A DNA stretch of 32,000 nt, taken from NCBI RefSeq assembly GCF_003231495.1, contig NZ_PQWO01000010.1, positions 150,001 to 182,000 on the forward strand. The letters run 5' to 3'. Of the stretch, positions 7,024 to 30,369 are shown piece after piece. The position numbers and the translations under genes were made by a program. Source of the DNA: Acaryochloris thomasi RCC1774. Lineage in GTDB: Bacteria > Cyanobacteriota > Cyanobacteriia > Thermosynechococcales > Thermosynechococcaceae. The notes under the pieces are model-generated. The model was not told where the DNA came from. It did not search any database and worked only from the letters and a program-made list of their open reading frames with translations. Numbering within the stretch: position 1 is the first letter of the stretch; every line of letters begins with the position of its first letter.

Positions 7024-7353
7024 ATGGCACAGAGACCCTCTCAAGCATCTAATGAAGAAACCTACACCAGCGCCATGCGCGTGTATGGGGGCGTGGCGTG
7101 GGGCAGCTTACTTTCTTTCTTGGTTGCCGTGACGCTGATTATTTTGCCGCAGGTGTCACGCTCGTGGCTATGGAGTGTTGTCCCTCTTTGGTTTGGCCTG
7201 TGCGGAATTGGGGTTTTATTGCAGTGGTCAGTGGCCCGAGGGGCCTGCCCAAAGTGCGGCCATCGCCAATCAACAACACCAATGATGACGAGATGCCCAC
7301 AGTGCCGCAGCTATCTGAAAGCCGTCAATCGCAAAATCGTTAAGGTTGGCTAG
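7024..7353 (+). CDS. Small membrane protein with a C-terminal zinc-ribbon
   Basis: The 109-aa product has two hydrophobic helices (VAWGSLLSFLVAVTLIILP, WSVVPLWFGLCGIGVLLQW) and then CPKCGHRQ...CPQCRSY (CxxC-x13-CxxC). Confidence 0.6.
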   Translation: MAQRPSQASNEETYTSAMRVYGGVAWGSLLSFLVAVTLIILPQVSRSWLWSVVPLWFGLCGIGVLLQWSVARGACPKCGHRQSTTPMMTRCPQCRSYLKAVNRKIVKVG

Positions 7354-10252
7354 GTTCGAGACCCAATAGATCTAGAAACTGGGCCTCCGTCAACTGCGGA
7401 ACACCGTATTTTTCAGCTTTCTGTAGTTTATTGCCTGGGTTTTGACCCACAACGATATAGCTTGTTTTAGCACTGGGGTGAGCATTGATTTTGCCACCGG
7501 CAGCTTCAATCAAAGCTTTCACCCGATCTGAGCTGAGAGAGGCAAGTTTGCCTGTGATTACGAAGCTTTGATCAGCAACAGAAGAGCGGGAGACTGGCTC
7601 TGCACTAGTGGAGTCAACGGCATTCGGGGCTGGGGAGGTGGCTCCTGGTGCCTTCTGCACCTGCTGCTGCAGAGTGGCGACAACCTGCTGGGCAAGCTGC
7701 ATTGCTTCTTCAAGCTGTGCTTTCTCCTGCTGCAGTGTTTGGACCTGCTGCTCAAGCGCGGCACCTGCTTCGCAGGCCGCTCGAAAATCTTGACTTAACT
7801 GCTTCTGCTCGCGGGTCAGCGTCTCAATAGTTTGCTGTAGTGTCTTATCCTCTGCAGGAGCCGTGCACTCTTGGGCTTCCGCCTCTCGTTCAGCAAGGGT
7901 CGTCTGGGCCACCTGCAGATCTGCCTTGAGCTGATCTCGCTCTTGAGCTAGATTGCTTTGCTGCAGCTCTAGAGTATTGGTCAGCTCTTGAAGCTGCTGT
8001 CTGAGCGCTCGACTTTCTCCTTGCTCAGACACAGTGGCGGCCTTCGCCCACTGAAGATCTTGCTGGATGCGATCGCGTTCTTGAATCACACTCCTTAGCT
8101 GTTGTTCAAGGGGCTGATCTTCAGCCTCTTGTAAAGCCTGCATCACGTCTCCCAGATTGGCTTCTAGACGCTGAATATTCGTCTGCAGATCTGTAATCAC
8201 ACCTTCGGCTTCACCCACTTCAGTCATCAGTAAATCACGATGGTTGGTAAGGGTAATCACCTGCTCTGCTAAGGGAGCTGCTGACGCCACAGCCTGCTCT
8301 AACGCCTCTTCAATGCTCGTCTTTTGGTTCTCTAAGTTTTCTAGCTCTAAGCTCTGTAGCTGCTTCTGAGAGCTAGAATCACGGACCTGAACCTGCAGCC
8401 GCAGGATCTCTGACTTGGCTTGCTGCAGCTCAACTTGGCTCTGTTGGTGCGCTTGCTCCAGCACCTCAATGTGTTGTTCTAGAGCCACAGGTTGTGCCCT
8501 AGTCTGCTGTAAATCGGTCTCTAGAAGCGCCTGCTGCTGCTCTAGTTGATGGATGACGGTCTGGAGCTGAGTCGCCTCAGCTTGCGTTTCAGTCAATGCG
8601 GCAGCGGTTTGATTGCGGTCTTGCTCTAGAGCCAACAACTGCGCTTCTAGCGCTGTAACTTGCGTTTGCTGAGCACTTTGTTGAGAGGACGTTAAGGTCT
8701 CAGCTCGCAAGACGGCAGCGTCAAGCTCTTGCTGGATCCGATCGCGTTCTTGAACGACCCGCTCCAAACGCGACGTTAGCTCCACGGTCGCCTGATCCGC
8801 AGTTTCTCGAACCTGGGTTTGCTGCTGTTCTAGCTCAGATATTTGGTGCTGTAGGTCGGTGGTCGTCTGCTGGGTTTGATGCAGCTCTTGGGAGATGAGA
8901 TCGCGTTCTTCAACAACACCTTGAAAGCGCTGTTCCCAATCTGACGGTACCTTTGCACTCACTGCCCGCTGTTGTGAGAGCGCCTGAGTTGCTGTTTCCA
9001 ATTCAATGATCAGGCGCTCTCTTTCTTGGCTCACCGCCCGTAACTCTGCCGTCACCTCTGGCGAGACGGCCTGCTGAGCCTGCTCAAGCTCAATCCTCGT
9101 TTGCTGGAGCTGTGCCTGCAATCGCTCAACATCTTCTACAGGACAAAGCTGATTGTTCTCTGCCGTCAGGGTTTGAACCTGAATCTCTAGCTGCTCACGG
9201 TGCGTCCAGGCCGCTTCTAATTGTTCTTGCAGTGTCTTAACTTGGGTCTGGAGAGACTGCAGCTCCGTCAGATGGACTTGCGTCTCCTGTAGCTGGGCAA
9301 GTGCCTGGTCTCGCTCTTCTGCTGTGCGCTGTTGAGATCGCTCCAACTCCGTCAAGCGCGGATGAATTGCCTGTGCTGACTCCAACCGCTGCTCTAGGCT
9401 CTGGACGTGCTCCCGTTGCTCTGCCTGTTGCGCCTCCCGCTGCCGAAGCACCTGCTGCATCTCATCGTGATCTTGAGTGAGCCGGTCTACAGTTTGCTGT
9501 AGCGATTGAATCGTAGCCTGAGACTCTTGCGCCGTTGCGCCCAGGGTTTCTTTCTCTCGAATAAGCGTCTGGAACTGAGGCTGCAGTCGGCTGGCTTCAG
9601 ACCGAGCCTGCTGCAGATCTTGAGTCAGCTTGGCCTGCTGCTGGGTTAGCGTTTCGATCTGCTGCTCTAGTATTCTGCGCTGGGGCTGCTGTGCCTGCTG
9701 CTCAGCCTGCAAAGATTGGAGTTGGTTTTGCAGGGTTCGAATCTTATTTTGAGACTGCCTCAAGTCTATTCCTATCTGATTTTTAGCCTCGGAAAAAGTC
9801 AGACGTTCCTGTTCAAGCCCCGTCACATTCTCCTGCGCTTGCTGCAGACGGGTGTGAAGCTGCTCCTGTTCTTGGACGAGCGTTTGCTCTTGCGCCTCTA
9901 GCATCTGAATACGAGAGGCTTGGGAGGCTTGTTCCCGCGCCCAAGTTTGCTGCGCCTGAGTCAGGGCTGCAGCCTGATGTTCTAGATCTGCAGTTCTTGC
10001 TTGTCCCTGATCGACAGACACCTGTAGGTCTTGGTTGAGGCCCGTGGCTGCACTCAACTGTTCCTGGAGTCGCTTAGCTTGCTGCTGAGCAGTCTTAAGC
10101 TGTGTAACTTGGCGAACCTGCTCTTCTGACTGTTGCTGGTCACGACGACGAGAACGCATCAGTAAAGCCAACAGGACACCTGTGCTGCCGCAGGTTAACC
10201 AGAAGCCATAATGAGTCAAAGCGAAAACGGTGGAGCTGATAGTGTCACCCAT
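7340..10252 (-). CDS. Membrane-anchored Gln-rich coiled-coil protein with a C-terminal BRCT domain
   Basis: The 970-aa ORF starts with ATG. An N-terminal hydrophobic segment FALTHYGFWLTCGSTGVLLALLM is followed by RSRRRD. About 850 aa of Q/E/L/A/T-rich heptad-like sequence follow. The C-terminal 80 aa (7343-7582), SFVITGKLASLSSDRVKALIEAAGGKINAHPSAKTSYIVVGQNPGNKLQKAEKYGVPQLTEAQFLDLL, match the BRCT domain of NAD-dependent DNA ligase. Confidence 0.85.
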   Translation of the reverse strand: MGDTISSTVFALTHYGFWLTCGSTGVLLALLMRSRRRDQQQSEEQVRQVTQLKTAQQQAKRLQEQLSAATGLNQDLQVSVDQGQARTADLEHQAAALTQAQQTWAREQASQASRIQMLEAQEQTLVQEQEQLHTRLQQAQENVTGLEQERLTFSEAKNQIGIDLRQSQNKIRTLQNQLQSLQAEQQAQQPQRRILEQQIETLTQQQAKLTQDLQQARSEASRLQPQFQTLIREKETLGATAQESQATIQSLQQTVDRLTQDHDEMQQVLRQREAQQAEQREHVQSLEQRLESAQAIHPRLTELERSQQRTAEERDQALAQLQETQVHLTELQSLQTQVKTLQEQLEAAWTHREQLEIQVQTLTAENNQLCPVEDVERLQAQLQQTRIELEQAQQAVSPEVTAELRAVSQERERLIIELETATQALSQQRAVSAKVPSDWEQRFQGVVEERDLISQELHQTQQTTTDLQHQISELEQQQTQVRETADQATVELTSRLERVVQERDRIQQELDAAVLRAETLTSSQQSAQQTQVTALEAQLLALEQDRNQTAAALTETQAEATQLQTVIHQLEQQQALLETDLQQTRAQPVALEQHIEVLEQAHQQSQVELQQAKSEILRLQVQVRDSSSQKQLQSLELENLENQKTSIEEALEQAVASAAPLAEQVITLTNHRDLLMTEVGEAEGVITDLQTNIQRLEANLGDVMQALQEAEDQPLEQQLRSVIQERDRIQQDLQWAKAATVSEQGESRALRQQLQELTNTLELQQSNLAQERDQLKADLQVAQTTLAEREAEAQECTAPAEDKTLQQTIETLTREQKQLSQDFRAACEAGAALEQQVQTLQQEKAQLEEAMQLAQQVVATLQQQVQKAPGATSPAPNAVDSTSAEPVSRSSVADQSFVITGKLASLSSDRVKALIEAAGGKINAHPSAKTSYIVVGQNPGNKLQKAEKYGVPQLTEAQFLDLLGLEPSQP
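8059..8085 (-). repeat. Intragenic 27-nt repeat copy A (encodes QERDRIQQ module of the coiled-coil protein)
   Basis: cttgctggatGcgatcgcgttcttgaa matches 8728..8754 at 26 of 27 positions. It contains a HIP1 site. Confidence 0.85.
8069..8076. repeat. HIP1 octamer GCGATCGC
   Basis: Exact match read from the sequence. Confidence 0.95.
8728..8754 (-). repeat. Intragenic 27-nt repeat copy B (encodes QERDRIQQ module)
   Basis: cttgctggatCcgatcgcgttcttgaa matches 8059..8085 at 26 of 27 positions. A more diverged third copy lies near 8892..8917 (EERDLIS). Confidence 0.85.
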
Positions 10253-24866: not shown

Positions 24867-25427
24867 ATGGTTACCAACTCGATTCGCTGGACAGTGCGAG
24901 ATTTGGGCGCGATGCCTGATGATGGGGGCTGGAAGCGTTACGAAATCATTGATGGAGCATTAATTGTGACCCGCGCCCCTCACTTTCGTCACCAAAGGGC
25001 CGGTGGAAATATTCACGTTGAGTTAGCAAACTGGTCTCGCAGAACTGGACTCGGTGAGGCATGTGAAGCGCCAGGAGTTATCTTCACTGAAATGGATGCC
25101 GTGATCCCAGATGTGGTGTGGGCCAGTCACGATTGCCTAGAAAAAGGAATGGACAATGCGGGCCATTTTGTTGTTGCGCCAGAGCTGATTGTAGAGATTC
25201 TTGCTGCGGGTGAAGTAAATGAGCAAAGAGATCGTGAGGTCAAGCTGAAGCTGTACTCACTCCATGGGGTGCAGGAGTATTGGGTGGTTAACTGGCGGCT
25301 GAACAATATTGAAGTGTACCGGCGGCGAGAGATGCAGCTCCAGAAAGTAGCCACGCTGCTGCAAGAAGATAGATTGACTTCGCCTCTACTGCCAGGACTT
25401 GAATGTGAAGTTGCAACCGTTTTTTGA
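24867..25427 (+). CDS. Uma2-family (DUF820) putative endonuclease
   Basis: YEIIDGALIVTRAPHFRHQRAGGNIHVELANW...VIPDVVWAS...APELIVEILAAGEVNEQRDREVKLKLYSLHGVQEYWVVN is the PD-(D/E)xK-like Uma2 pattern that is abundant in cyanobacteria. Confidence 0.8.
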   Translation: MVTNSIRWTVRDLGAMPDDGGWKRYEIIDGALIVTRAPHFRHQRAGGNIHVELANWSRRTGLGEACEAPGVIFTEMDAVIPDVVWASHDCLEKGMDNAGHFVVAPELIVEILAAGEVNEQRDREVKLKLYSLHGVQEYWVVNWRLNNIEVYRRREMQLQKVATLLQEDRLTSPLLPGLECEVATVF

Positions 25428-25517
25428 TGGTTTGCGCTGGATGGGTGTGTCTCAACACCAAGATTGGTGAAAAGTATTGGTATCTTAGATGGATATCTTT
25501 TAAAGTCATCATCCTGC

Positions 25518-26672
25518 ATGAGTAATAAACCTGCCCAACGCCCGCAATCTCCTAACTTCTCTTCTGGTCCTTGCTCTAAGCACCCCGGCTGGTCCGTGCA
25601 GTCTCTCGGTAATGCGCTGGTGGGCCGGTCTCACCGCTCCAAGCCAGGGAAAGCCCGTATCAAAGAAGTCATCGACGGCACCAAAAAGATTTTAGGCATC
25701 CCCGATGATTACCTTTGTGGCATCGTCCCTGCCTCCGATACCGGTGCTGTGGAACTAGCGATGTGGTCACTCCTAGGTGAGCGAGGTTTGGATATCTTGG
25801 CCTGGGAAAGCTTTGGTAAGGGCTGGGTTACTGATGTACAAAAGCAGCTCAAGCTGTCAGATTGTCGGGCAATGGAAGCTGACTATGGACATTTACCTGA
25901 TTTATCGCAGGTGGATTGCGATCGCGACGTTGTTTTCACCTGGAACGGCACGACTTCCGGCGTCAAAGTTCCTAACGGCGACTGGATCCCTGACAATCGC
26001 CAAGGGTTAACCATTGCTGACGCCACCTCTGCCACCTTTGCCATGCAGATGCCCTGGTCCAAGCTTGATGTGGTCACCTGGTCCTGGCAAAAAGTGATGG
26101 GGGGCGAAGCGGCTCATGGAATGCTAGTGTTGAGCCCTCGCGCCGTCGAACGTCTAGAAAGCTATACGCCCGCTTGGCCGCTGCCCAAGATTTTCCGGCT
26201 CACCAAGGGCGGCAAGCTGATTAAGGGGATTTTTGAAGGGGCGACCATCAATACACCGTCGATGATTTGTGTTGAGGATGCTCTAGATGGTTTGAAATGG
26301 GCTGAGAGCTTGGGTGGGCTGACCGCTTTGATCAAAAGATCAGAAGCGAATTTAGATGCGATCGCAACCTGGGTTAACCAAACCCCTTGGGCAGATTTCC
26401 TGGCCGTCGAACCCGCCACCCGCTCCAACACCTCAATCTGCTTAAAAATTGTAGATCCTTGGTACACCGCTCTACCTGCAGAGGAGCAGGCCCAAAAAGC
26501 CAAACAGATGGCAGCACTCCTAGATACCGAAGGCGTCGCCTACGACATCGCCTCCTATCGAGATGCCCCACCCGGACTCCGCATTTGGGGTGGGGCAACT
26601 GTCGAGGCTGCCGACATTCAAGCTCTGCTGCCTTGGTTAGACTGGGCCTTCGCGGAGATCAAAGAGGGATAG
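25518..26672 (+). CDS. serC: Phosphoserine aminotransferase (SerC, short 'type 2' form)
   Basis: From the ATG at 25518 the protein reads [25 protein letters not shown]...[10 protein letters not shown]...[18 protein letters not shown]...[11 protein letters not shown] (PLP Lys)...INTPSM. The track start at 25464 adds 18 unlikely residues. Confidence 0.85.
25918..25925. repeat. HIP1 octamer GCGATCGC
   Basis: Exact match read from the sequence. Confidence 0.95.
26358..26365. repeat. HIP1 octamer GCGATCGC
   Basis: Exact match read from the sequence. Confidence 0.95.
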
Positions 26673-26710
26673 ACTTCTTGTAAAGTAAAACAAGAATGGA
26701 GCGCGATTAA

Positions 26711-27067
26711 ATGTCAGATGCGATGAATGTGTTGGGCAGTAAACTTGAAAGCTGCTGCACGTCTCCAATGACTGGTTTTTATCGTGACGGGCTTTGCCGC
26801 ACGGGGGGCGGTGACTTTGGGGCCCATGTCGTCTGTGCTCAGATGACAGATGACTTTCTCGCCTTTACAAAGGCAAAAGGCAATGATCTCAGCACACCAT
26901 CTTCTTATTTTCCAGGGCTAAAGCCTGGAGATTGCTGGTGTCTGTGTGCCTCTCGCTGGCAAGAAGCGATGGTTGCAGGCGTCGCCCCGCCTGTGGTGTT
27001 GACGGCAACTCATGCCAGTGCCTTAGAATATGTGTCGATAGATGATCTGCAGCAGCACGCCCTCTAG
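26711..27067 (+). CDS. DUF2237-family protein
   Basis: NVLGSKLESCCTSPMTGFYRDGLCRTG...GAHVVCAQMTDDFLAFTKAKGNDLSTP...PGLKPGDCWCLCASRWQEA...APPVVLTATH is the characteristic conserved-Cys pattern of DUF2237. Confidence 0.8.
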   Translation: MSDAMNVLGSKLESCCTSPMTGFYRDGLCRTGGGDFGAHVVCAQMTDDFLAFTKAKGNDLSTPSSYFPGLKPGDCWCLCASRWQEAMVAGVAPPVVLTATHASALEYVSIDDLQQHAL

Positions 27068-27077
27068 GAACAACCCA

Positions 27078-28451
27078 ATGGCTAAAAATACACCCCCTAC
27101 CTTTAATTTGCTCAGTATTGGTCACCGGGGAGTCGGTAAAACCGTTTTCTTGGCTGGTAGCTACGCCGAACTACAGTCCGGGCGGCAGGTGGAATCAAAA
27201 GATATTTGGTTTGAAGGGGCTAACGATCAGGCCCAGACGACCCTTGAAAAGCTGTTGGGTTACATGGCCCAAACAGGCCAATATCCACCCGCCACCATGA
27301 AGGTGACAGACTTTACCTTCACAGCCAAGGCACATGAGGGCCGTAAAGCTAAAACCCTCTGTGAATTTCGCTGGGCCGATATCCCGGGCGAAATTTGTCA
27401 TCTCGACAATCCTAACTTTGAGTCCATGCTGCTCAAATCCCACGGCTGCTGCGTGTTTATTGACGCAGGCGCTCTGGTACAAGACCCTCAGTACTTAGCG
27501 CAGCTAGAAGATACCGTTAAGCAGGTGGAAACAATTTCTTCCTTAGCCGCTCAGAGTGGCCTTCAGTATATCTTCGCCCTGATTTTGACCAAGTGCGATC
27601 TACTTGATGCGGGGCCAGCCAAGCTGATCAAAATTGAGCAAAAGTTGCGATCGCTCACCACTCGCCTAGATGAAGCTAACACCATTTACCGTCGTTTCTA
27701 TTCTTCAATCTCGATTATTCCAGCCGGTGGTACCTCAGTCGTCAAAGCAGAAGGTGCCTCGGTCCCCATTCTGTGGCTGGTCTCAGAACTGAGCAAGGTC
27801 TATCAGGCTCAAACACCCAAGAATTTGGGCAGCGGCTTTGAAAAAACGCTCTCAAATGCCCAACCAGAACCCAGCTATGCCAACAATATTTCAAGTCCTG
27901 GCCTGACTTCTAACCGTCAGACCGGCATTTTGCCCAAAGTTCTCGCCGGAGTTGCAGCGGTCGGAGTTGTCGGGGGACTCCTCTTCGGGCTGAGCAAACT
28001 ACTGCCCAATAGTAGTTCAGTGATCGCGGGTAGCAGTTCTGAAATCGGTGCGCAATATGAGAAAGCGCTGAGGGAAAATCCAGAAGATACGGAGGCACTG
28101 GCAAAGCTTGTTGAGCTACACCAAGAGCAAGAGCAATATGAACCAGCGATAGGCTACCTAGAACAGCTCATTGCTCTCAAGCCTGATGATATGAATCTCT
28201 ACTTTCAGAAAGCCGGTCTGTACGCGATCATGGGTCGCAAAGACAAAGAGGAGGCATCCTATGACGAGATTTTAGCGAGGCAGGGAAATAACGTCATGGC
28301 TTTAACAAATAAAGCGATTCTGCGCAGTACGCAAGGCGATTTGGATACAGCAAAGACCTTGTTCGCGAAGGCAGAAGCATCCGTCCCTGAAGGGGAACTT
28401 AAACAGACAATTCAGGACGTCGCTAAAGATTGGTTAGAGGGTACGGAATAG
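27078..28451 (+). CDS. Ras-like (TRAFAC) GTPase domain, single TM helix and C-terminal TPR repeats
   Basis: The start is the ATG at 27078, 10 nt after the DUF2237 stop. GTPase motifs are G1 GHRGVGKT (27120-27143), G3 DIPG (27378-27389) and G4 TKCD (27588-27599). The hydrophobic helix is VLAGVAAVGVVGGLLFGL (~27939-27995). TPR-like repeats follow (ALRENPEDTEALAKLVELHQEQEQYEPAIGYLEQLIALKPDD...). The track start at 27042 overlaps DUF2237. Confidence 0.8.
   Translation: MAKNTPPTFNLLSIGHRGVGKTVFLAGSYAELQSGRQVESKDIWFEGANDQAQTTLEKLLGYMAQTGQYPPATMKVTDFTFTAKAHEGRKAKTLCEFRWADIPGEICHLDNPNFESMLLKSHGCCVFIDAGALVQDPQYLAQLEDTVKQVETISSLAAQSGLQYIFALILTKCDLLDAGPAKLIKIEQKLRSLTTRLDEANTIYRRFYSSISIIPAGGTSVVKAEGASVPILWLVSELSKVYQAQTPKNLGSGFEKTLSNAQPEPSYANNISSPGLTSNRQTGILPKVLAGVAAVGVVGGLLFGLSKLLPNSSSVIAGSSSEIGAQYEKALRENPEDTEALAKLVELHQEQEQYEPAIGYLEQLIALKPDDMNLYFQKAGLYAIMGRKDKEEASYDEILARQGNNVMALTNKAILRSTQGDLDTAKTLFAKAEASVPEGELKQTIQDVAKDWLEGTE
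27647..27654. repeat. HIP1 octamer GCGATCGC
   Basis: Exact match read from the sequence. Confidence 0.95.
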
Positions 28452-28633
28452 TCCAGGCCAGCAGAGTCTCTAACAAAGTCAAGGAGAGAATAGTCACCGC
28501 CCAGGACCGAAAGGATTCATAATAAAGGCAGTGCTTCCGCGGGGGTTAGGAAACACTAACTTAAAATTTTGGCAACTCAAGTCTAGCCGCACGGATCTAC
28601 CCGTAGGGGGGTGACCGTTATTGATAGGAACCT

Positions 28634-29446
28634 ATGTCGTTAGTCGTCGGCCAGATTGTCTACTCCAGCTTCCCTCGGATTGGCTATCAAATCTTCGCCA
28701 ACGCTGAGATGCCAGAGTCTGTGCAGTCTGCATTCGTTGAAGATATTGTTCATAAACATTGGGATGTCTATGAGCCACCACCGCCAGGATATCGGGCAGG
28801 CTTTATTCATCAAGCTCATCCTGACCACACGTTGTTTGGTTGGCTCTTCAATGATGGGGACGACGATCATGGCCGTCCCCATACGCCCTACTGCTTGAGC
28901 TACCACCTCAATCAACCCCTCGAATCTGACATCGCCAATTTTATTGTTCAGTGCCTGCAGAAAGGGCCAGTCGCACTCATCCCAAGACACATCATCCCTG
29001 AACAGCCTGGGCAACTTGAAATTACGAGTGACTATGAACCGGCGGGCCTTGGCGTCACATTTACAGCAGTGCAGCAGCAGCAAATCCAAGAACAGCTTCA
29101 GCACCCATCACTACTGCAGTGTTTCTTGGCTGATAGCGGTGTACCAACCCTCATAAATGAACCCATAACAAAGGCTGTAGAAGATGAATTCATCGAGCCT
29201 CAGGTATGGCACCAGCCACTGATTCACCCAGATTTGGCGGCTCCCGCTCCTGCACAATCAGTAGCTACAGCCTCAGGTCAACGGACGTTGCCCACCTTGA
29301 CGACATCTCAGCAGAAAGGAGACCTGGCCACTCTTTCTGCTGGTCCTCCTTCGGGGAACCCTCCTGGGCAGCGGGCTGTGACGCGCAAGCCCCCATCAGA
29401 GGACTTAGCCCGTCAGATTATCTCGATCTTAGACGAAACGCTTTAA
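28634..29446 (+). CDS. Unknown-function protein with a compact N-terminal alpha/beta domain (longin/roadblock-like by eye) and a Gln/Pro-rich disordered tail
   Basis: The 270-aa ORF starts with ATG, 182 nt downstream of the GTPase-TPR gene on the same strand. The N-terminal ~125 aa are non-repetitive (GQIVYSSFPRIGYQIFANA...TLFGWLFNDGDDDHGRPHTPYCLSYHL...). Then come QQQQIQEQLQ and a Pro/Ala/Ser-rich region. Confidence 0.7.
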   Translation: MSLVVGQIVYSSFPRIGYQIFANAEMPESVQSAFVEDIVHKHWDVYEPPPPGYRAGFIHQAHPDHTLFGWLFNDGDDDHGRPHTPYCLSYHLNQPLESDIANFIVQCLQKGPVALIPRHIIPEQPGQLEITSDYEPAGLGVTFTAVQQQQIQEQLQHPSLLQCFLADSGVPTLINEPITKAVEDEFIEPQVWHQPLIHPDLAAPAPAQSVATASGQRTLPTLTTSQQKGDLATLSAGPPSGNPPGQRAVTRKPPSEDLARQIISILDETL

Positions 29447-29514
29447 AGACTCAGGACTGGCGAGTCATGCTGCAGTTCTATCGCTTTTGGGAAGCTCCGA
29501 GAAGGCGATCACGT

Positions 29515-30369
29515 TTAAGGCTGACGATTGACCACGGAAAAGAGGGCCGAATAATCATCATCTGCATGCTGCTCCATCGCCTGCTGGAGGAGGTCTTGAA
29601 CCGCGGCGACCATCCCTGTCTGCAAATCTGCCGATGACGCCAAGAACAGGTTGAGGTCTTTGAATAAATGCTTGGCAGGAAAATTTGGATTGTCGTAGTT
29701 TTGACTTTCCATACGCGGCAGTTTCTTATCGAACGTGGGCGCGTATAGAGCACTCGTTCGCAAAATCTCCATCAGCATCTCTGATTCAACGCCGTGGTGC
29801 TGCGTGAAACTGAGGCTGAGGGCAAAGGCCGTGGTCAAGGAGCCAATCAGCTGATTAAGAGCTAGCTTAAGGGCAGCAGCTGTTCCCACAGGGCCAATCA
29901 GGCGAGGCTGAGTCCCCACACAGCTCAAGATCGGTAGCCAGCGCTGGAACTGTGCCAGTTCAGCCCCTACCATCACGATTAGCTCGCCGGTCTTAGCTTC
30001 TGGGATGCTTCCTAGCACGGGAGCTTCTAGGTAATCACCTCCGGCTTCAACAACGGCGTCTCGAATGTTTTGACTCTCGGCCGGTGCAATTGTCCCCATC
30101 TGGAGAATGGTGTGCCCAGGCAAGGCAGCTTGAGCGGCGTCTGTGAGGATCAGCTCATGAATGGCAGCGGCATCGGTCAGCATTAAGATAGTGCAGTCAG
30201 CAGCCGTAATCACCTCTGCAGGTGACGCAGCAAGGTTGGCCCCTGCAGCCTGGAGTGGAGGCAGTTTATCTGGCGTTCGGTTATAGACCGTCAGGACATG
30301 ATGATTAGCCAAGAGTCGAGTCGCCATCGGTAGCCCCATGAGTCCAGTACCGATCAAACCGATCTGCAT
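29515..30369 (-). CDS. NAD(P)-dependent beta-hydroxyacid dehydrogenase (3-hydroxyisobutyrate / 6-phosphogluconate dehydrogenase-like family)
   Basis: It has the N-terminal Rossmann motif MQIGLIGTGLMGLPMATRLL and the mid-domain GTAAALKLALNQL, typical of HIBADH-type enzymes. The product is 284 aa. Confidence 0.85.
   Translation of the reverse strand: MQIGLIGTGLMGLPMATRLLANHHVLTVYNRTPDKLPPLQAAGANLAASPAEVITAADCTILMLTDAAAIHELILTDAAQAALPGHTILQMGTIAPAESQNIRDAVVEAGGDYLEAPVLGSIPEAKTGELIVMVGAELAQFQRWLPILSCVGTQPRLIGPVGTAAALKLALNQLIGSLTTAFALSLSFTQHHGVESEMLMEILRTSALYAPTFDKKLPRMESQNYDNPNFPAKHLFKDLNLFLASSADLQTGMVAAVQDLLQQAMEQHADDDYSALFSVVNRQP

Follow-up and report, generated by a model that had tools for sequence, protein, structure and literature searches.

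A putative membrane-tethered GTPase switch with a longin-like partner protein in cyanobacteria

Do two neighbouring genes of the cyanobacterium Acaryochloris thomasi RCC1774, one encoding a GTPase with a transmembrane (TM) helix and TPR repeats and the other a protein that matches no described family, belong to one and the same signalling device? The question is raised by a 32,000-nucleotide (nt) stretch of this genome (hereafter the window), where both products, termed here G and P, have 100% identical database entries. The initial annotation, made from the sequence alone, read them as a Ras-like GTPase spanning the membrane and a longin/roadblock-like partner comparable to MglB. Our analysis indicates that this account was largely right about the architecture and the pairing of the genes and wrong in the labels "Ras-like" and "MglB-like"; of the outcomes named beforehand as refuting it, none was observed. 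We consider it rather probable that G and P together form a cyanobacteria-specific, membrane-tethered GTPase switch in which P serves as a longin-like regulator or adaptor, i.e. the pair is probably an undescribed molecular switch signalling across a membrane. Literature searches found no published description of the pair or of the N-terminal domain (N-domain) of P.

The GTPase, membrane helix and TPR repeats of gene G

As initially annotated, gene G starts with the ATG at 27078, 10 nt past the stop codon of a DUF2237 open reading frame (ORF) at 27067, and encodes 457 amino acids (aa). The product is 100% identical to the database protein P0020 of A. thomasi RCC1774, and its homologues align with it from the start; a longer reading frame is open from 27042, but the database protein and all homologues begin at the position corresponding to 27078. 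The features of G are as follows.

27078..28451, + strand: gene G, 457 aa, GTPase domain, TM helix and TPR repeats (ORF list)
27078..27872, + strand: TRAFAC-class GTPase domain, aa 1-265, putatively cytoplasmic (Pfam DO-GTPase2; AlphaFold2 model)
27120..27143, + strand: G1 (P-loop), GHRGVGKT
27282..27296, + strand: candidate G2 (switch I) threonine T73 in YPPAT (YPPxT); Y69 and T73 invariant in both sets of homologues
27378..27392, + strand: G3 (Walker B), DIPGE; DIPG itself at 27378-27389
27588..27599, + strand: G4 (guanine specificity), TKCD, following model strand E165-171
27696..27704, + strand: candidate G5, FYS, on model strand E203-208; F207 and S209 invariant
27939..27992, + strand: single TM helix VLAGVAAVGVVGGLLFGL, aa 288-305, with G296xxxG300xxxG304; hydrophobicity maximum of G
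28050..28397, + strand: about three TPR repeats, aa 325-440 (Pfam TPR models above threshold)

Residues 1-265 of G have a sole family match, to Pfam DO-GTPase2 (PF19993), with 30.4 bits for the full-length protein (E-value 4e-7) and 31.8 bits for the GTPase domain (E-value 1.4e-7), scores only marginally above the gathering threshold of 27 bits. The same family is matched by all 30 homologues of G taken from the genome loci (best E-value 1.6e-8), four of which also match DO-GTPase1, while matches to the Ras, Roc and Gtr1/RagA models are sporadic, with E-values above 0.01 (e.g. Ras, PF00071, in 1/30, E-value 0.045, and Roc in 3/30, E-values of at least 0.044). A search of the PDB sequences with the GTPase domain revealed nothing significant, either with the single sequence or with a profile of 30 sequences. 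The AlphaFold2 model of the domain, calculated from 42 sequences with a predicted local distance difference test score (pLDDT) of 85.9 and a predicted TM-score of 0.85, retrieves 304 PDB chains at E-values below 1e-3 in a Foldseek search. Among the matches listed, EF-Tu G domains rank first by E-value (~3e-8), followed by Rab, Ran, EngB, G-alpha-s and MglA (1e-5 to 1e-6), with TM-scores of only ~0.35-0.43, and in structure the domain is as close to any one of these GTPases as to the others. According to these structure and sequence searches, G is a genuine TRAFAC-class GTPase with no close solved relative, for which "Ras-like" is too specific. It belongs to the DO-GTPase2 type and retains every G motif in intact form, and the one family to which it can be assigned has been defined by computation alone (Kaur et al. 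2020, PMC7159879) and is not a well-characterised one.

The G1, G3 and G4 motifs had been recognized at the outset, and the comparison of homologues adds YPPxT and FYS to them. No variation is seen among 42 homologues at G15, R17, G18, V19, G20, K21, T73, D101, P103, G104, E105, T171, D174 and S209, and a separate set of 30 homologues gives nearly the same invariant positions, including also T22 of G1. Such invariance implies that the motifs are not chance matches, and G1 to G5 follow each other in the expected order on a Rossmann-like GTPase core. The YPPAT segment is located between G1 and G3, just ahead of model strand E79-87, and T73 is the likely G2 threonine; S209 is the likely G5 residue. 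Glu105 occupies the position of Gln61 in Ras, so that DxxG is followed by Glu and not by Gln, in agreement with the conserved Walker B Glu that has been stated to be a hallmark of DO-GTPases (Kaur et al. 2020, PMC7159879). Thus the GTPase motifs noted initially are borne out, and the assignment to the Ras family is not.

The single hydrophobic helix and the TPR repeats were likewise correctly spotted. The helix VLAGVAAVGVVGGLLFGL is the hydrophobicity maximum of the whole protein (Kyte-Doolittle mean of 2.19 over 19 residues), and most homologues of G possess a helix at the equivalent position. Its GxxxGxxxG pattern is typical of helix-helix packing. In aa 325-440 three TPR models score above their cut-offs: TPR_17 (E-value 1.8e-11, 43.8 bits, cut-off 24.4), TPR_19 (3.6e-8, 34.1 bits, cut-off 25) and TPR_14 (2.3e-6, 28.2 bits, cut-off 23.5). 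This part of the protein diverges faster than the GTPase domain (median identity of 38% vs 52%, lower in 110/111 homologues) and shows weak matches to the NCBIfam models of Ycf3, PilW, BepA and MamA. The match to BepA (E-value 0.028, for a model with a cut-off of 570 bits) bears on the public name of the G product in the P0020 entry, "Beta-barrel assembly-enhancing protease", which stems from the TPR repeats and is wrong, because a peptidase domain is absent; otherwise the database names of G and P proteins are "hypothetical" or "TPR repeat protein". Since G lacks an N-terminal signal sequence and its GTPase domain must reach GTP, the TPR domain would be exposed to the periplasm or the lumen.

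The N-terminal domain and variable tails of gene P

Gene P is located on the same strand 182 nt downstream of G, exactly as annotated, and comprises a conserved N-terminal part, a disordered linker and a short C-terminal helix.

28452..28633, + strand: G-P spacer, 182 nt
28634..29446, + strand: gene P, partner protein of 270 aa, 100% identical to C1752_03733 (P0001)
28634..29131, + strand: conserved N-terminal domain, aa 1-166, with the longin-like order ββαβββαα (AlphaFold2, pLDDT ~90)
28850..28876, + strand: acidic loop NDGDDDHGR with the near-invariant Arg81, between strands E65-73 and E85-92
29138..29395, + strand: Gln/Pro-rich disordered linker, aa 169-254 (pLDDT <50), poorly conserved
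29399..29437, + strand: conserved C-terminal helix SEDLARQIISILDETL, H256-268 in the model, kept in the ten closest homologues

The AlphaFold2 model of P contains strands (E) and helices (H) in the order E2-13, E17-22, H28-42, E54-62, E65-73, E85-92, H98-110 and H145-155, the first seven of which match element for element the secondary structure initially read by eye. The N-domain had been given a length of ~125 aa; in the model it runs to about aa 166, adding H145-155. With two extra short strands the domain reads ββαβββ-α-(β)-α-(β), and it begins with a strand at residue 2. According to Levine et al. (2013, PMC3747258), the longin order is ββαβββαα and the roadblock order is αββαβββα. Compared with these, the model of P has the longin order, not that of MglB. 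The Gln/Pro-rich disorder predicted to follow the domain is also present in the model, where residues 169-254 have pLDDT values below 50.

Sequence comparisons place the N-domain in no known family: P has no Pfam or NCBIfam match, and scans of 12 N-domains of its family against Pfam at E-values up to 10 found nothing relevant. Nor did the PDB sequences yield a match when searched with a profile of the N-domain. In a Foldseek search of the PDB with the model of P no match reaches an E-value of 1e-3; the best specific matches are TagF (9t0n, E-value 6e-3, probability 0.97), chain N of the FLCN-FNIP2-Rag-Ragulator complex (6ulg_N, E-value 1.2e-2, probability 0.99), several GATOR1 subunit chains (probability 0.57-0.72) and a Ragulator subunit. 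All these best specific matches are GTPase-regulator platforms of the longin/roadblock class, with weak superpositions (E-values from 6e-3 to 0.3, root-mean-square deviation of 5.4-7.9 Å over 107-115 columns). "Longin-like" is used here as the best-supported, not proven, fold for the modelled N-domain. The longin part of the original "longin/roadblock-like, MglB-like" label thus agrees with the order of elements and with the best structural matches; the MglB part does not hold, as P has no Roadblock match. We also considered and rejected the N-domain as a diverged duplicate of Roadblock, for which hhalign against the Roadblock domains fused in the same family gave a probability of 0.4%.

Conservation on the surface of P peaks in the loop FGWLxNDGxDDxGR-x3-PY, which connects strands 4 and 5. 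Among 60 family members, conservation at N73, D74, G75, D77 and R81 is complete or reaches at least 90%, the latter holding for Arg81, and Arg118 is a second near-invariant arginine. By analogy with eukaryotic regulators, Arg81 or Arg118 could be an arginine finger and the Arg81 loop could be a candidate contact with the GTPase. FLCN Arg164 and Nprl2 Arg78 act as arginine fingers.

An exhaustive search of 1.84 billion representative proteins with a profile hidden Markov model (HMM) of the N-domain retrieved 181 protein clusters, 178 of them at E-values below 1e-10, so the family is very sharply bounded. With one exception, the domain begins at residue 39 or earlier in the 150 best matches listed, and the proteins that carry it are from 110 to 1066 aa long. 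All 76 genome loci with P (76/76) are cyanobacterial records or unclassified metagenome-assembled genomes, and they extend from Gloeobacterales to Nostocales.

Analysis of the regions following the N-domain reveals a variety of tails. The most frequent class among 60 proteins (26/60) has a TM helix and a WD40 propeller; another (15/60 in the loci, 39 family members in all) has a true Roadblock/LC7 domain directly after the N-domain, sometimes with a V4R domain. Further classes possess a TM helix and a periplasmic-binding fold (PBP_like_2 or Phosphonate-bd), or a caspase C14 domain, either alone or in proteins of ~1000-1050 aa with the order caspase-TM-WD40. The window P has no TM helix (maximum hydrophobicity of 0.99); instead, its tail consists of the Gln/Pro-rich linker and the C-terminal helix. 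This helix, SEDLARQIISILDETL, is short, acidic and amphipathic, and is conserved unlike the ~90 residues that precede it; it may be a short binding motif. Three of the large proteins (L077:7407-10556, L083:6407-9541 and L084:6337-9354) are encoded 17-24 nt after long G genes of the GTPase-TM-TPR type, and combine the P N-domain, caspase C14, a hydrophobic helix near aa 650-685 and a WD40 propeller. A subset of the cyanobacterial caspase-WD40 proteins thus appears to be coupled to a G-type GTPase.

Pairing of G and P in cyanobacterial genomes

In order to survey the pairing, the 76 genome loci, which contain 81 copies of P, were searched with the GTPase domain of G. A G gene is found within 3 kb of 57 of the 81 copies, immediately upstream on the same strand in 43 cases, downstream on the same strand in 10 and on the opposite strand in 4; one further copy has G at a distance of 4.3 kb, and 9 are on contigs that end early. 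Clustering of all ORFs in these loci placed the G cluster in 53/76 and the next cluster in 18, and found no third conserved component besides G and P. The co-conservation and adjacency that were to be checked are thus evident, as G and P are each other's only conserved neighbours. In the reverse direction, a gene with the P domain lies within 3 kb of 4 of the 7 sampled long G-TM-TPR genes with full flanks, and in 3 of these 4 it encodes an N-domain-caspase-TM-WD40 protein 17-24 nt downstream. Moreover, the distances between paired GTPase domains correlate with those between the corresponding P N-domains (r=0.75, whereas permutations gave at most 0.27); G and P diversify in parallel.

The distribution of membrane helices and outside domains over the two proteins is complementary. 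Among 50 G genes linked to P, 39 are short (a GTPase ending in a TM helix and a few further residues) and 11 have TPR repeats. P proteins paired with short G usually carry their own TM helix and a large outside domain, and those paired with TPR-type G are soluble in about half of the 11 cases, as in the window. Accordingly, the GTPase-TM-TPR architecture noted initially is correct for the window locus and is not general. Each pair examined has a TM helix as membrane anchor in one or both partners, and the domain beyond the helix sits on G (TPR, as in the window) or on P (WD40, periplasmic-binding fold). The constant elements are the GTPase domain and the N-domain of P, which would both be cytoplasmic. 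In three records (L010 and L031 from Gloeobacterales, and L074) G has 286-296 aa and no hydrophobic helix, and P has a helix near aa 215-225, a layout that is the reverse of the window arrangement. Two P genes flank one GTPase gene in L004, L050, L057 and L058 (order P-G-P), where P occurs in two architectures, one of ~349 aa with a TM helix and the other of ~640 aa with a TM helix and a further domain.

In the window, a scan for promoters and terminators (26500-29800) detected no terminator-like or promoter-like site on the + strand of the G-P spacer, and neither the spacer nor the whole window has an Rfam match; co-transcription of G and P is possible. The DUF2237 ORF upstream of G (26711..27067, Pfam PF09996, E-value 2.4e-53) is adjacent to G only in the two closest relatives, and it was rejected as a part of the module. 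A C39-peptidase ABC exporter, an HlyD-like protein and small peptides with a GG motif are found upstream of G-P pairs in 8-13 loci, several of them of Nostocales type (e.g. L030:4461-6623, L036:2722-4176 and L019:5732-6031; also L081:6315-10399). They too were rejected as module components, since they are limited to 8-13 loci, and we judge them to reflect lineage synteny.

The other neighbours in the window include a Uma2-family protein, a squalene/phytoene synthase family protein, a dehydrogenase and a VTT-domain protein; the pair is set among housekeeping genes, with no marks of mobile elements. Genes of Uma2-family putative endonucleases lie a few kb from G in the window (24867-25427) and in three unrelated loci (L077:1249-2124, L080:1-247 and L084:9628-10023), which may be due to chance. 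Uma2 genes are very numerous in cyanobacteria. Just upstream of DUF2237, a 402-aa ORF (25464-26672, translated from 25518) has no Pfam match at E-values up to 1e-5; judged by eye, it may resemble an aminotransferase. On the - strand, a 970-aa ORF (7340-10252) has a C-terminal BRCT domain (aa 894-963) as its sole Pfam match at E-values up to 1e-5, which leaves the ~890 residues at its start without an assignment.

Relation to known systems and proposed mechanism

One known system with points of contact is DO-GTPase/GAP1 (PF19975, PF19993), described by Kaur, Burroughs, Iyer and Aravind (2020, eLife, PMC7159879) among "GTPase-centric" conflict systems. On a rival reading the pair would be its cyanobacterial counterpart, with a role in programmed cell death or in immunity. 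The threshold would be set by G, and P, as the adaptor in place of GAP1, would deploy variable effectors such as caspases when an outside TPR or WD40 sensor meets an invader or non-self, the window copy being effector-less or having its effector supplied in trans. The GTPase domain indeed scores above the PF19993 threshold, some homologues match DO-GTPase1, and the Walker B Glu is invariant; the gene order agrees too, the GTPase gene preceding a partner whose N-terminal domain is constant and whose C-terminal domains vary. TM helices and domains outside the membrane are again common, some P tails contain caspase C14, accompanied by WD40 or not, and there are several paralogous G/P systems per genome. 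The Pfam score of G is, however, marginal (30-32 bits vs 27), and GAP1-N, GAP1-M and GAP1-C have no match in P or in the 12 N-domains of its family at Pfam E-values up to 10, apart from very weak ones that the filters of HMMER might conceal. The pair has one GTPase instead of two, no zinc ribbon and no GASH or FNIII component, and G starts directly with the P-loop strand. The pair is cyanobacterial, whereas DO-GTPase/GAP1 systems are "nearly completely absent in cyanobacteria" (Kaur et al., PMC7159879). Many P tails are sensor- or regulator-like (periplasmic-binding, Roadblock) and not toxic effectors, PADLOC defence models do not match the window pair, its housekeeping surroundings show no mobile element, and the window P has no effector domain. 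Taking both sides together, we regard a conflict function as unlikely. MglA/MglB is likewise a two-gene unit of a small GTPase domain and a longin/roadblock-class protein, and some members of the P family carry a true Roadblock/LC7 domain; nevertheless, G is not MglA or Ras by HMM, has Glu in place of the catalytic Gln and is membrane-anchored, and the N-domain of P, in longin order, lacks both an N-terminal helix and any similarity to the Roadblock profile (PF03259). The pair therefore fails the defining features of both DO-GTPase/GAP1 and MglA/MglB.

The P N-domain finds its best specific structural matches among eukaryotic longin regulators (FLCN-FNIP, GATOR1 Nprl2/3, Mon1-Ccz1 and DENN), which share with it the ββαβββαα order and the N-terminal position of the longin domain in a larger multidomain protein; the conserved loop arginine of P may be compared with the arginine fingers of FLCN and Nprl2. 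Unlike them, P is bacterial, has no sequence similarity to them and only weak structural E-values, and its partner is neither a Rag nor a Rab GTPase; according to Levine et al. (2013, PMC3747258), prokaryotes had no known longin domains. A second comparison is with SR-beta and SR-alpha, a TM-anchored GTPase and a protein whose monomeric SRX domain has the longin fold. In the description of Levine et al. (2013, PMC3747258), the single-helix face of SRX is where it binds a GTPase. By this analogy the GTP-bound, anchored G would recruit P, together with whatever binds its C-terminal helix, to the plasma or thylakoid membrane, and the TPR domain would be an assembly scaffold and not a ligand sensor. 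A membrane-anchored GTPase with a monomer-sized partner of (predicted) longin order fits such a targeting or assembly device, the soluble P of the window would need G to reach the membrane, and TPR proteins are commonly assembly factors (cf. the weak matches to Ycf3, PilW, BepA and MamA). P has its own TM helix in most pairs, though, so membrane recruitment is not the general function of the pair, being possible at the window locus; G and P are not related in sequence to SR-beta or SRX, and the helix of G is C-terminal to the GTPase domain and followed by TPR repeats. SR-beta is Arf-like and has an N-terminal anchor. The pair is also present in records from Gloeobacterales (L010, L028, L031 and L068), which lack thylakoids, and its function is therefore not thylakoid-specific. 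We consider this explanation improbable.

Could the adjacency of G and P be meaningless, i.e. independent proteins kept together by local synteny? DUF2237 stands next to G in the two closest relatives only, which shows that some local synteny without functional meaning exists in this clade, some G and some P genes occur alone, and a 182-nt spacer parts the two genes. Yet the adjacency persists from Gloeobacterales to Nostocales, in many paralogous subfamilies and otherwise unrelated neighbourhoods, TM helices and outside domains are split between G and P in a complementary manner, and the sequences of the partners diverge in a correlated way. This explanation is strongly disfavoured, and we would give it hardly any weight.

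Several observations weigh against a membrane-tethered switch formed by G and P as well. The structural match of P to longin domains is weak (TM-scores of 0.21-0.25 on the full 270 residues, low in part because they are normalised on a length of which 166 residues are ordered), and no sequence profile supports the longin assignment. The topology of G hangs on a single hydrophobic segment, and co-transcription across the 182-nt spacer is no more than possible. Fourteen of the 81 copies of P have no G nearby although both flanks are fully available, 3 of the 7 sampled long G-TM-TPR genes have no P nearby, and the same probably applies to two further G paralogues of A. thomasi; G can thus work without an adjacent P. 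The correlation of r=0.75 partly reflects the shared phylogeny of the species.

With these reservations, the following mechanism can be proposed for the membrane-tethered switch. The GTPase domain of G and the N-domain of P would meet at the cytoplasmic face of the membrane, where the latter would dock on the GTPase as longin and roadblock platforms do on small GTPases; what suggests such a contact is solely the pairing of the genes. By analogy with these platforms (Levine et al. 2013, PMC3747258; Nat Commun 2026, PMC13408092), P could be a regulator, either a GTPase-activating protein (GAP), possibly by means of Arg81 or Arg118, or a guanine nucleotide exchange factor (GEF), or else an adaptor that reads the nucleotide state. 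On the other side of the membrane, a protein or peptide of the periplasm or lumen would be the ligand of the TPR domain, and the glycine-zipper TM helix would relay the occupancy of this domain, probably via a change in oligomerisation, and bias the GTP/GDP state or the G-P contact. The output would pass through the variable tail of P, which in the window is a disordered linker with a conserved helix that may recruit a cytoplasmic factor, and in paralogous systems is a caspase or Roadblock domain. A bolder version holds that P has a true bacterial domain of longin topology that docks on a membrane-anchored DO-type GTPase, and that cyanobacteria as a whole possess receptor-GTPase devices in which an outside TPR, WD40 or periplasmic-binding domain controls a GTPase:longin switch with outputs such as orthocaspases; this we put forward tentatively, as a possibility that is more doubtful than the switch itself.

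If the proposed switch is real, it would be a third bacterial pairing of a GTPase with a platform protein, beside MglA/MglB and DO-GTPase/GAP1, and one that is embedded in the membrane and tied to outside sensor domains. The 166-residue N-domain of P, which is absent from Pfam, NCBIfam and the PDB, stands at the start of the members of no fewer than 181 protein clusters, caspase-WD40 proteins among them, and an upstream GTPase would offer a testable handle on the control of these caspase homologues; our searches yielded no open-access paper in which "orthocaspase" and "GTPase" occur together. The pairing of a bacterial domain of longin order with a GTPase would also be relevant to the origin of the eukaryotic longin regulators. 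On the bolder version given above, the G/P pair would be the bacterial equivalent of longin-GAP/GEF signalling in eukaryotes and a so far unrecognised regulator of cyanobacterial caspase homologues.

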